From NCBI RefSeq assembly GCF_013315695.1, contig NZ_CP054353.1: a stretch of DNA of 64,000 nucleotides. The stretch is one strand, 5' to 3'. Made by a program: the position numbers and the translations under genes. Each line of letters begins with the position of its first letter. Position 1 is the first letter of the stretch. Origin of the DNA: Escherichia coli (GTDB lineage: Bacteria; Pseudomonadota; Gammaproteobacteria; Enterobacterales; Enterobacteriaceae). A model generated the notes under the pieces. It was not told the origin of the DNA. It worked only from the letters and a program-made list of their open reading frames with translations, and made no database searches. Shown one piece after another: positions 1 through 64,000 of the stretch.

Positions 1-591
1 CAGCACACTTTCTGCCGTAGGCAGCGCAATGCCATATTTTTTATTCGCCGGGTCATTCAGTTTCTGCGCGACATCCAGCAATTGCTGCCAGTTTTTCGGC
101 TCCTCCAGCCCGGCTTTTGCCAGCACATCTTTGCGATACCAGATGCCGCCAATCCAGGCGCTGACAGGAACACCGGTCCATGCGCTACCATCTTCGGTGC
201 GCACAATCCGCAGAACGCCATCGTAGAACGCGCCTTCACCGACGTTGCTGATGACCGTGGCAACCGCCAGGCGATCGATAAGCTGCTCTTTGTCCATAAC
301 TTTGGCGTAGTCATGGCTGGTTTCGATCACTTCCGGCAGCGAACCACTACGTGAAAGGGTAATGACTTTGGTGTTATAGGCGTCTTCTTCCACGGGCACT
401 TGTTTAACGGTGATGCCCGGGTTTTCTTTTTCAAAACGCGCAATTAACTGACTAATTACCGCCTGGCGTTCCTGTTCCACCGAAGAATGCATAAACTCAA
501 TGGAGACATTCGTTTTATTTTCTTCTTTACAACCTGAAATCAGGGCGCAGGAAACCAGTGCTGATAACAGCACGATTTTTGATTTAATCAT
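1..591 (-). CDS. ycjN: ABC-transporter periplasmic sugar-binding lipoprotein, N-terminal part; gene runs off window start
   Basis: Minus-strand ATG at 589-591 gives MIKSKIVLLSALVSCALISGCKEEN... (lipobox LISGC), open to position 1. Absent from ORF track because no stop lies inside the window. Position downstream of ycjM matches remembered ycjMN order. Confidence 0.8.
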   Translation of the reverse strand, partial: MIKSKIVLLSALVSCALISGCKEENKTNVSIEFMHSSVEQERQAVISQLIARFEKENPGITVKQVPVEEDAYNTKVITLSRSGSLPEVIETSHDYAKVMDKEQLIDRLAVATVISNVGEGAFYDGVLRIVRTEDGSAWTGVPVSAWIGGIWYRKDVLAKAGLEEPKNWQQLLDVAQKLNDPANKKYGIALPTAESVL

Positions 592-604
592 GAGATGTTC
601 CTTT

Positions 605-2284
605 TTATTTAATCCACATAACCTGCCAGGGGCGCAGCGTTATTTCATTACCCACTATATCAACTTCACTAATCAGATCCCGACCGTGCAGGTCAGTAAT
701 ATTTATATGCTGAATATTTTCACTGACATTAAACAATCCTGTCAGACAATTACCATCCGCGTTGCTTCTTTGAATACACATTACGGATGAATTAACCGTG
801 TCGATGGTAAAATCATTATCTGGATGAAACTCGTTATGACTTCGACGAATTTTAATTAGTCGCGACAATTCATGATATACCGCGTGCCTTAACGTCGTTT
901 TATTGTTCAGTTCGGTCGTGATCTCTTCACTGTAATATTTTTTACGGTTAATCGCACGGTTATATCCCAGTTTTTCGACACCTGCGTAATCATTACGCGA
1001 GCCCAGAATACTTTGAATATATATCGCTGGCACACCGGGGAAACTTAACAAAATCGCATGGGCAAGGATAAACCTGGCGCAACGTTCTTCATCGCTACTC
1101 TCGCGGCGGTTTAACGCATCCATATAAGTGACATTCATTTCATACGGGCTACGCGTACCGTCGGGATTATTTTTCCAGTTAACTAATGCCCCTTCCTGCT
1201 GTAATGCCTCGACCAGCGCTAATATTTCGCTTTCGGGTAGCAAGCCACGCAGTGGGTTAAGCCCGATGCCATCGTGAGAGGCGAGGAAGTTAAACCAGGT
1301 GGTGTTGCTGGAAGGTAGTGTCAGGTTTTGCGCCCACGCACAAAGCGCCTCAACGTTCTGTTTTTGCACCGCATGCAGCACCAGCGGCGGCAGCGAGAAC
1401 TGGTACACCATATGCGCTTCGTCATCACCGTTGCCAAAGTAAGCAATGTTGTCTCTGTGCGGAACATTGGTCTCGGTAATGATCACTGTACCTGGTGCTA
1501 CGTCATCAATAATCGACCGTAACAGTTTGATAATCAGATGTGTTTTTTCCAGATGGATGCAGCTTGTTCCCGGCTCTTTCCACATAAAGCCAACGGCATC
1601 CAGACGGACATATTCTGCGCCCTTTTCCAGGTAGCACAGCAATACATCCACCATCGCCAGTAACACTTCAGGGCTACGGTAATTCAGGTCAATTTGATCG
1701 TCACTAAAGGTGGTCCATAAATGGCGCGTTGAATGATCGCGCATCTGGAATGGCGTTAATAACGGTAACGCACGCGGGCGAGTGACGACGCTGAGATCGG
1801 TTTGCGGGTCAACGGCAATAAAAAAATCTTCAAAACCTGGCTGCTGTTGTAAATAGTTTTTAAACCATTCACTTTTTGCCGACATATGGTTGCAGACAAA
1901 ATCAAACATTAAATGACTGCATTCACCGAGTTGCTGAATATCCTGCCACTCCCCCGCTTCACTAGCGACCTGTTGATAATCAATTACCGAAAAGCCATCA
2001 TCAGATGACCATGGATAAAAAGGTAATAAATGAACATGTGAAAAAATGCTTTGCAGCCATTGAGGGTAAAACTGATTAAATGTGGGTAGTGGTTTTAAAT
2101 CATTACTGTGAAATTGATCGGCATAGGTGATTAACACGACATCACTTTCATCCCAGTGTTTTTTACGTCGCAGTGTAATTAATCGTTTCGCACTCTCAAG
2201 ACGCGTTACAAGTTTCTGTAAATGAGTTGCGGTAAATGTTCCACCGTAGATTTCGTCCAGGTAATCCGTAATTTTCTGTTTCAT
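605..2284 (-). CDS. ycjM: GH13 sucrose-phosphorylase-family enzyme (glucosylglycerate phosphorylase), 559 aa
   Basis: ORF 605..2311; start chosen at MKQKITDYLDEIYGG to match remembered 559-aa length. Confidence 0.85.
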   Translation of the reverse strand: MKQKITDYLDEIYGGTFTATHLQKLVTRLESAKRLITLRRKKHWDESDVVLITYADQFHSNDLKPLPTFNQFYPQWLQSIFSHVHLLPFYPWSSDDGFSVIDYQQVASEAGEWQDIQQLGECSHLMFDFVCNHMSAKSEWFKNYLQQQPGFEDFFIAVDPQTDLSVVTRPRALPLLTPFQMRDHSTRHLWTTFSDDQIDLNYRSPEVLLAMVDVLLCYLEKGAEYVRLDAVGFMWKEPGTSCIHLEKTHLIIKLLRSIIDDVAPGTVIITETNVPHRDNIAYFGNGDDEAHMVYQFSLPPLVLHAVQKQNVEALCAWAQNLTLPSSNTTWFNFLASHDGIGLNPLRGLLPESEILALVEALQQEGALVNWKNNPDGTRSPYEMNVTYMDALNRRESSDEERCARFILAHAILLSFPGVPAIYIQSILGSRNDYAGVEKLGYNRAINRKKYYSEEITTELNNKTTLRHAVYHELSRLIKIRRSHNEFHPDNDFTIDTVNSSVMCIQRSNADGNCLTGLFNVSENIQHINITDLHGRDLISEVDIVGNEITLRPWQVMWIK

Positions 2285-2465
2285 GTTGCCTTTTTGTGGT
2301 AGCGGTCCCATGAAACGAGAGACTACTCCACAGAAAATAAACTGTCAATTGAGCACAAGGGTTTTAGTCACGCAGGAAATCATTTTTTACCAGGGAAAAA
2401 GCGTATTTGTGAGCTGACGCAAATAATCTATGGGGATGTAAATAAGGTGTGACAGAAAAAGTAAA

Positions 2466-62065: not shown

Positions 62066-63427
62066 ATGATGCAAACCGTTTTAGCGAAAATCGTCGCAGA
62101 CAAGGCGATTTGGGTAGAAACCCGCAAAGAGCAGCAACCGCTGGCCAGTTTTCAGAATGAGGTTCAGCCGAGCACGCGACATTTTTATGATGCACTTCAG
62201 GGCGCACGCACGGCGTTTATTCTGGAGTGTAAAAAAGCGTCGCCGTCAAAAGGCGTGATCCGTGATGATTTCGATCCGGCACGCATTGCAACCGTCTACA
62301 GAAATTACGCTTCGGCAATTTCGGTGCTGACTGACGAGAAATATTTTCAGGGGAGCTTTGATTTCCTCCCCATTGTCAGCCAAATCGCCCCACAGCCGAT
62401 TTTATGTAAAGACTTTATTATCGACCCTTACCAGATCTATCTGGCGCGCTATTACCAGGCTGATGCCTGCTTATTAATGCTTTCAGTACTGGATGACGAA
62501 CAATATCGCCAGCTTGCCGCCGTCGCCCACAGTCTGGAGATGGGTGTGCTGACCGAAGTCAGTAATGAAGAGGAACTGGAGCGCGCCATTGCATTGGGGG
62601 CAAAGGTCGTTGGCATCAACAACCGCGATCTGCGCGATTTGTCGATTGATCTCAACCGTACCCGCGAGCTTGCACCGAAACTGGGGCACAACGTGACGGT
62701 AATCAGCGAATCCGGCATCAATACTTACGCTCAGGTGCGCGAGTTAAGCCACTTCGCTAACGGTTTTCTGATTGGTTCGGCGTTGATGGCCCATGACGAT
62801 TTGAACGCCGCCGTGCGCCGGGTGTTGCTGGGTGAGAATAAAGTGTGTGGCCTGACGCGTGGGCAAGATGCTAAAGCAGCTTATGACGCGGGCGCGATTT
62901 ACGGTGGGTTGATTTTTGTTGCGACATCACCGCGTTGCGTCAACGTTGAACAGGCGCAGGAAGTGATGGCTGCGGCACCGTTGCAGTATGTTGGCGTGTT
63001 CCGCAATCACGATATTGCCGATGTGGTGGACAAAGCTAAGGTGTTATCGCTGGCGGCAGTGCAACTGCATGGTAAAGAAGATCAGCTGTATATCGACACT
63101 CTGCGTGAGGCTCTGCCAGCACACGTCGCCATCTGGAAGGCTTTAAGTGTCGGTGAAACTCTTCCCGCGCGCGATTTTCAGCACATCGATAAATATGTAT
63201 TCGACAACGGTCAGGGCGGGAGCGGACAACGTTTCGACTGGTCACTATTAAATGGTCAATCGCTTGGCAACGTTCTGCTGGCGGGGGGCTTAGGCGCAGA
63301 TAACTGCGTGGAAGCGGCACAAACCGGCTGCGCCGGACTTGATTTTAATTCTGCTGTAGAGTCGCAACCGGGCATCAAAGACGCACGTCTTTTGGCCTCG
63401 GTTTTCCAGACGCTGCGCGCATATTAA
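62066..63427 (+). CDS. trpC: Indole-3-glycerol phosphate synthase / phosphoribosylanthranilate isomerase
   Basis: 453-aa [39 protein letters not shown]... Confidence 0.95.
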
Positions 63428-63438
63428 GGAAAGGAACA

Positions 63439-64000
63439 ATGACAACATTACTTAACCCGTATTTTGGTGAGTTTGGCGGCATGTACGTGCCACAAATCCT
63501 GATGCCTGCTCTGCGCCAGCTGGAAGAAGCTTTTGTCAGTGCGCAAAAAGATCCTGAATTTCAGGCTCAGTTCAACGACCTGCTGAAAAACTATGCCGGG
63601 CGTCCAACCGCGCTGACCAAATGCCAGAACATTACAGCCGGGACGAACACCACGCTGTATCTGAAGCGCGAAGATTTGCTGCACGGCGGCGCGCATAAAA
63701 CTAACCAGGTGCTGGGACAGGCGTTGCTGGCGAAGCGGATGGGTAAAACGGAAATCATCGCCGAAACCGGAGCCGGTCAGCATGGCGTGGCGTCGGCCCT
63801 TGCCAGCGCCCTGCTCGGCCTGAAATGCCGTATTTATATGGGTGCCAAAGACGTTGAACGCCAGTCGCCAAACGTTTTTCGTATGCGCTTAATGGGTGCG
63901 GAAGTGATCCCGGTACATAGCGGTTCCGCGACGCTGAAAGATGCCTGTAACGAGGCGCTGCGCGACTGGTCCGGCAGTTATGAAACCGCGCACTATATGC
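63439..64000 (+). CDS. trpB: Tryptophan synthase beta chain, N-terminal part; runs off window end
   Basis: ATG at 63439 after [38 protein letters not shown]...; no stop inside the window. Confidence 0.9.

Follow-up and report, generated by a model that had tools for sequence, protein, structure and literature searches.

Three disrupted genes in a 64-kb region of an IS1-rich Escherichia coli clone are probably genuine, lineage-specific mutations

When three genes are disrupted within one short region of a bacterial chromosome, are the lesions carried by the organism, or were they introduced when its genome was assembled? This question is raised by a stretch of 64,000 nucleotides from Escherichia coli (NCBI RefSeq assembly GCF_013315695.1, contig NZ_CP054353.1), which is referred to here, at its full length, as the window. 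It corresponds to the ycjN–psp–puu–sap–fabI–rnb–topA–trp chromosomal region, and contains an insertion sequence (IS) of the IS1 family that splits a lipoprotein gene, together with small deletions in yciW and in the gene for a NodT-family outer-membrane efflux lipoprotein (OMF). A first-pass annotation, made from the sequence alone, had reported three disrupted genes and offered two explanations of very different biological meaning, namely gene decay as seen in Shigella-like genomes and the homopolymer errors of long-read assemblies. All three disruptions are present in the sequence, and we hold with good confidence that they are genuine, heritable and lineage-specific mutations, arising at the background rate of a clone in which IS1 has multiplied, and that they do not represent Shigella-like reduction.

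The three lesions and their distribution among relatives

The closest complete genome to the window is that of strain MSB1_4I (NZ_LR898874.1; rectal swab, Australia), for which a literature search gave nothing relevant. Isolates AF3 (NZ_OZ547117.1; blood culture, UK) and MS 21-1 (NZ_CP146670.1; colon, USA) are near relatives, and the chromosomes of these relatives measure 5.27-5.30 Mb (5.28 Mb for MSB1_4I). Seven substitutions, one gap of 11 bp and one element of the IS5 family, present in MSB1_4I only, separate the window from MSB1_4I over its 64 kb; there are zero 1-bp indels between the two. Counts of junctions and of coverage were made among 5426 complete E. coli genomes.

The yciW pseudogene lies at 29499-30610 on the + strand. 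Relative to nucleotides 882-897 of the K-12 gene, and to MS 21-1, 16 bp are missing between positions 30379 and 30380, the frame shifts after residue 293 of 375, and three in-frame stops follow, the first of which is at codon 321 (30459-30461). The deletion cuts the C-terminal peroxidase-related/CMD domain (residues 260-373). Orthology to b1287 is indicated by the conserved fabI-yciW-rnb synteny and by 96% nucleotide identity to K-12, and the full 375-aa frame is not retained; the window copy is a pseudogene of the K-12 orthologue. This gene is non-essential and its function is uncertain. The same junction was found only in MSB1_4I and AF3 among the complete genomes, and the Prokaryotic Genome Annotation Pipeline (PGAP) flags yciW as 'frameshifted' in both. 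The exact 320-aa truncated product is also recorded in 1120 blocks of public assemblies, on contigs mostly of 20-200 kb; the sole such locus examined, on a SPAdes-named contig (L024), differs from the window over 20.9 kb only by the 11 bp that the window lacks in its OMF gene and by two single-nucleotide polymorphisms (SNPs).

The IS1 element is of the IS1A type and occupies 53153-53920 (768 bp, + strand), as delimited by reading its terminal inverted repeats, which are imperfect and 23 bp long (the 23-nt arms are 78% complementary). The list of open reading frames (ORFs) places insA at 53208-53483 (91 aa) and insB at 53402-53905 (167 aa), both on the + strand. The element is flanked by direct repeats of the 9-bp target TTAACAGCG, the left copy at 53144-53152 and the right copy at 53921-53929; target duplications of the IS1 family range from 8 to 9 bp. 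Over its 768 bp it matches IS1A copies in many E. coli genomes with 100% identity, and identical copies in the relatives are annotated as 'IS1A family transposase, programmed frameshift'. In length (about 768 bp), in its imperfect repeats of about 23 bp, in its insA/insB' frames and in its 9-bp duplication it conforms to the IS1 family, and with the AT-rich target these features make the event resemble other IS1A inactivations in E. coli and Shigella. The insertion site alone is specific to this clone, the element itself being no different.

The disrupted gene is read from the − strand. From its start at 53957 it encodes MIRYSGIFLSLLMLSGC..., which is a signal peptide of lipoprotein type and has a lipobox, and IS1 sits after codon 12, splitting the signal peptide of a 333-aa accessory lipoprotein gene. 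The 5' fragment, comprising the start codon (53957-53955), codons 1-12 and the right duplication copy, lies at 53921-53957 (− strand, read from the sequence); the 3' remainder, from codon 13 to the stop, lies at 52179-53152 on the same strand and was defined from the sequence and from the intact gene of AF3. Taking out IS1 and one copy of the duplication rebuilds the gene, and in AF3, which is without IS1 at this site, an uninterrupted coding sequence (CDS) of 1002 nt, or 333 aa, is annotated. As the element follows codon 12, the 3' remainder is left without promoter, ribosome-binding site, start codon and most of the signal peptide. The junction at 53153 is common to the window and MSB1_4I only among the complete genomes. 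In MSB1_4I, PGAP calls a 321-aa ORF that starts at an internal ATG, and in the annotation of MS 21-1 the equivalent N-terminal piece is a partial pseudogene.

The third lesion inactivates the OMF gene (21780-23142, − strand). Between positions 22247 and 22248 the window is without 11 bp (CGTCGGGAAAA on the + strand) that are present in MSB1_4I, AF3, MS 21-1 and a short-read contig. The frame shifts after residue 294 of 457 and runs to a premature stop at 22213, giving a product of 309 aa that keeps one OEP repeat (residues 57-240) and has lost the second. The intact 457-aa protein of the relatives scores 374 bits against TIGR01845 (cut-off 210) over residues 9-452, whereas the window product gives no full-length match with two OEP repeats; the window gene is therefore a pseudogene of a TIGR01845 member. 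Its junction was found in none of the 5426 complete genomes, and both truncated OMF products are absent from a public gene index of 153 billion gene positions; the YciT variant of the window gave only unrelated lineages in this index, which may therefore not include the window's own genome.

A SNP tree built from 23 variable sites in window positions 20000-64000 has the form (((window, MSB1_4I), AF3), MS 21-1), with three sites joining the window to MSB1_4I. The structural events each map to a single branch of this tree, with no homoplasy. The yciW deletion falls on the stem of the window, MSB1_4I and AF3, the IS1 insertion at 53153 on the stem of the window and MSB1_4I, and the OMF deletion on the window's own branch; an IS5 insertion in a 102-aa gene belongs to the MSB1_4I branch and an IS1 at window 53005-53013 to that of MS 21-1. 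Nesting of this kind is expected of inherited mutations and not of random consensus errors. Their sequence would have begun with the 16-bp yciW deletion, in the ancestor of the window, MSB1_4I and AF3. A transposition of IS1 into the signal-peptide region of the lipoprotein gene, as a simple insertion with a 9-bp duplication, would have followed, and then, in this genome only, the loss of 11 bp from the OMF gene of an accessory operon for RND efflux. In each case the product is predicted to be destroyed, through the loss of the second OEP repeat of the OMF protein, of most of the CMD domain of YciW, and of the promoter, start and signal peptide of the lipoprotein.

Assembly error as an explanation

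If the frameshifts were artefacts of long-read assembly or consensus, some or all of the affected genes would be intact in the organism. The lesions do share features with homopolymer errors, which likewise appear as CDS that PGAP flags as frameshifted, and one end of each deletion lies within a short A/T run: at the yciW site an A7 run becomes A5, and at the OMF site four bases of an A5 run are lost. The absence of the OMF junction and its products from the complete genomes and the gene index also favours an artefact. However, both deletions remove unique sequence and neither can be re-aligned as a change in homopolymer run length, so that a homopolymer slip is ruled out by base-level alignment to MSB1_4I, MS 21-1 and K-12. 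The gaps are of 11 and 16 nt, where errors of this kind change a run by 1-2 nt, and similar errors do not accompany them. A long-read consensus of low quality would scatter 1-bp indels, and the lack of any against MSB1_4I over 64 kb argues against assembly error.

The recurrence of the lesions bears on the same point. The yciW deletion is reproduced in independent complete genomes, one from Australia and one from the UK, besides the many assembly blocks that hold its exact product, and the IS1 insertion has a perfect target duplication and a junction that is common to MSB1_4I. A true homopolymer-type difference is, by contrast, visible in MS 21-1 at window position 32750, within a small ymiB-like ORF (32690-32794), where this genome has A7 and the window, MSB1_4I and K-12 have A8; PGAP flags the ORF as frameshifted in MS 21-1. 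It is the only homopolymer-type indel among the four genomes compared, and the window does not have it.

Assembly error is excluded for the yciW and IS1 lesions and is unlikely for the OMF deletion, which is very likely to be real; its size and the clean agreement with MSB1_4I elsewhere both point that way. That any of the frameshifts is an artefact is, overall, highly improbable. Of the claims made in the first-pass annotation, that of assembly error is not supported, and its description of two frameshifts stands in so far as both genes are out of frame, although the changes are deletions of 11 and 16 bp rather than single-base slips. The comparison with homopolymer runs that it had recommended shows a run at one end of each deletion, but neither deletion is a change in its length.

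Microhomology-mediated deletion was considered as the origin of the two deletions and rejected; neither can be shifted by even a single base, and direct repeats were not seen at the flanks. GAAA motifs at the OMF site are offset by one base and do not reproduce the observed junction.

IS1 load and the comparison with Shigella

The abundance of IS and of pseudogenes around these lesions was estimated in the sister genome MSB1_4I, from ten evenly chosen 50-kb windows that total 500 kb, or 9.5% of the chromosome. BLAST gave at least 40 IS1 match pieces for the whole of this genome, whereas E. coli genomes with any IS1 have a median of 11 matches. The 500-kb sample held eight IS-related features (six IS1, one IS4 with an internal stop and one IS110 fragment) and 14 pseudogenes flagged by PGAP, counted at gene level. 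Extrapolated to the genome, these figures give about 63 IS1 (Poisson 95% confidence interval 23-138), about 85 IS in total (1.6 per 100 kb) and about 150 pseudogenes. A number of about 150 pseudogenes per genome is in the usual range for automated annotation of E. coli. Curated E. coli genomes carry 22-95 pseudogenes, and their number shows no correlation with that of IS (PMC2617782).

All seven IS1 copies examined in MSB1_4I are 100% identical over 768 bp to the window copy, and three of the seven are without the 9-bp target duplication, which suggests IS1-mediated deletions or rearrangements. Identical copies and lost duplications are the signature of a recent IS1 burst. The suggestion that the lineage is IS-rich is borne out by these results, and the lesions have accumulated stepwise on the SNP tree. 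Counting IS1 and pseudogenes elsewhere had also been proposed, and this was done on the sample of MSB1_4I. The clone proved to be rich in IS1, but the window shows no excess of lesions, as 1.8 pseudogenes are expected per 64 kb from the sister genome and the Poisson probability of at least three is 0.27. A local hotspot of decay was rejected on this basis; the lesion count matches the clone background, and the window is thus an average sample of it.

Several of the lesions sampled in MSB1_4I affect surface structures. Between positions 3000001 and 3050000 of that genome, flhB is interrupted by an internal stop, only a remnant of tap is left, and between yedK and a fliR remnant lies an IS1 that has no target duplication; the other fli genes expected beside fliR are not annotated there. 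Together these losses make the clone probably non-motile. IS1 splits both bcsB and a gene for a yad fimbrial adhesin, and IS1 or point lesions were found across bcsB, the yad fimbrial genes, alsC, yjcS and ycaM. The same genome carries K1-type capsule genes (neuBC, polysialyltransferase, kps). In AF3 an IS1 lies beside a truncated yciE-like (DUF892) gene, downstream of trpA-yciG-yciF and about 2.9 kb past the right end of the window.

Could the window then be a typical sample of Shigella-like reductive evolution, in which a host-restricted lineage undergoes large-scale, IS-driven decay? The expansion of IS1, with its identical copies, and the flagellar, fimbrial and other lesions of the sister genome are in favour of this. 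So is the pace of disruption, since the 64 kb have gained three disruptive events and about 10 SNPs after the separation from AF3, a ratio that equals or exceeds the 141 IS and 73 pseudogenes reported for every 1000 single-nucleotide variants of S. sonnei (PMC7373316), but one that comes from n = 3 in a window chosen for containing lesions. The bulk of the evidence, however, goes against it. Shigella chromosomes have 229-348 IS (median 339), which make up 5-8% of their bases, and other E. coli have a median of 32 (PMC7373316), whereas hundreds of IS are not found here and the extrapolated total for MSB1_4I is about 85. The density of about 1.6 IS per 100 kb compares with 9.26 in S. dysenteriae (PMC7373316). 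The sister chromosome, at 5.28 Mb, is not reduced, the mean for Shigella being 4.6 Mb (PMC7373316), its pseudogenes number about 150, and widespread loss of core genes is not seen, as 55 orthologues of K-12 genes in the window are intact and only one core gene (yciW) of about 57 is broken. Nor is an IS1 load of this order confined to such lineages; at least 40 IS1 pieces are also found in 388 records, about 7% of the 5426 genomes.

The clone therefore resembles Shigella and enteroinvasive E. coli (EIEC; PMC7373316) in that a resident IS1 has proliferated into identical copies, some of them without target duplication, and in the loss of flagellar and fimbrial genes by stepwise lesions along the clone tree. 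It differs from them in an IS load that is about 4- to 5-fold lower, in its unreduced chromosome and in the expansion of one IS type only in the sample. Its relatives, unlike Shigella and EIEC, have K1 capsule genes and were isolated from rectal swab, blood and colon. The Shigella-like comparison drawn in the first-pass annotation was overstated, and it is improbable that reductive evolution of that kind accounts for the window. Two guessed regions of IAI39, which is reportedly an IS-rich E. coli by the account of Touchon and colleagues in 2009, were not syntenic with the window.

Affected islets, selection and significance

The three lesions had been placed in a housekeeping context, but two of the three broken genes are accessory and lie in variable islets. 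The OMF gene belongs to an efflux islet at 20608-28089 (− strand), defined from the annotation of MSB1_4I and from family scans, which stands where K-12 has ycjD. No match to ycjD was found in the window; its place is taken by the islet. Besides the OMF gene it comprises, all on the − strand, an MFS gene (20608-21771), an RND permease of AcrB/AcrD-like type (23146-26253), a MexA/AcrA-like adaptor (26253-27374) and a TetR regulator (27523-28089). These four remaining genes are intact and identical to those of MSB1_4I. RND pumps of E. coli generally use TolC, and by analogy the pump of this islet may still work without a channel of its own. The islet spans about 8 kb between sapF and fabI (window 20608-28566) with a core-like G+C content of 50.5%, and a 20-kb query that holds it is covered to at least 80% in 2040 of the 5426 genomes (about 38%).

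The lipoprotein gene lies in a two-gene islet between cobO and rluB (window 51808-54126), of about 1.3-1.5 kb, which is not in K-12 and has a G+C content of 36% compared with 51% for the window. The second gene of this islet, of 102 aa (51860-52168, − strand), is intact in the window and is split in MSB1_4I by the IS5-family element, with a 4-bp overlap at window 52003-52006. Neither the lipoprotein nor this neighbour had a significant match in a sequence search of Pfam, NCBIfam, PADLOC, PHROGs and PDB. A query with the full islet (window 51850-53150) was matched in 424 of the 5426 genomes (8%), at 92-100% identity. About 800 further genomes match only a stretch of it near the 5' end of the lipoprotein gene (query positions 1116-1301, window 52965-53150), and the match pattern suggests a lipoprotein family with a conserved N-terminus joined to divergent C-terminal variants.

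This islet has been hit by three separate IS events in four close genomes: the IS1 at 53153, the IS5-family element of MSB1_4I, and an IS1 at 53014 in MS 21-1, which lies 139 bp away from the first and has a 9-bp duplication of its own (window 53005-53013). The repeated hits could reflect an AT-rich trap for insertion or selection for loss. Were the losses adaptive, one or more of the inactivations would have been selected, for example where a surface lipoprotein or an outer-membrane channel is lost to escape phage, colicin or immunity. Recurrence in the islet and the concentration of sister-genome lesions in surface structures both speak for this, and any benefit derived from them would be putative. 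IS1 prefers AT-rich targets, however, and this preference, the 36% G+C of the islet and its dispensability account for the recurrent hits; the OMF and yciW lesions each arose once, on one branch. We consider it unlikely that the losses were adaptive.

The rest of the window gives little sign of decay. Its gene order runs from ycjN-ycjM through pspFABCDE, the puu genes, sapABCDF, the efflux islet, fabI, yciW, rnb, pdeR and yciT to pyrF, lapAB, pgpB, ribA, acnA, cysB, topA, sohB, yciK and cobO, and then through the two-gene islet to rluB, yciQ, yciO, rnm and trpLEDC(B). Apart from yciW, which is broken, and ycjD, which is absent, the K-12 orthologues in the window are all full length (55/55), with no gaps or internal stops, and trpB and ycjN are intact up to the window edge; further hidden pseudogenes were not found among these 55. 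Two substitutions private to the window lie 321 bp apart in yciT, at 35541 and 35862, and both are C:G to T:A (synonymous at L100, and G207S). Recombination as their source was rejected, since the unrelated lineages that have G207S do not carry the second SNP and show differences at 14-15 further sites; G207S is recurrent and not imported.

As the three targets are dispensable, the persistence of the lesions most likely reflects weak selection or none. Three points weigh against the reading of the lesions as genuine mutations accrued at the background rate of the clone. Their neutrality is inferred; the copy number of IS1 and the density of pseudogenes were estimated in a sample of the sister genome rather than in the window's own genome; and the OMF deletion is uncorroborated, so that its reality, which is probable, depends on the type of change and on the clean agreement with MSB1_4I. 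We nevertheless prefer this reading. The inactivation of dispensable genes by IS1 insertion and small deletions is a well-known phenomenon, and the finding is an ordinary one.

In annotation, true pseudogenes of the clone can be recorded for yciW and the lipoprotein gene, and a probable one, private to this genome, for the OMF gene. A more far-reaching interpretation, which we regard as possible but doubtful, is that the IS1 burst is recent and still active, and that the clone stands early on the degradative path of Shigella and EIEC, with disruptive events arising about as fast as substitutions and surface structures lost preferentially. If this were true, the clone would be worth following as a case of young, IS-driven adaptation. 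As it stands, the window documents the routine loss of dispensable genes in an IS1-rich E. coli clone.

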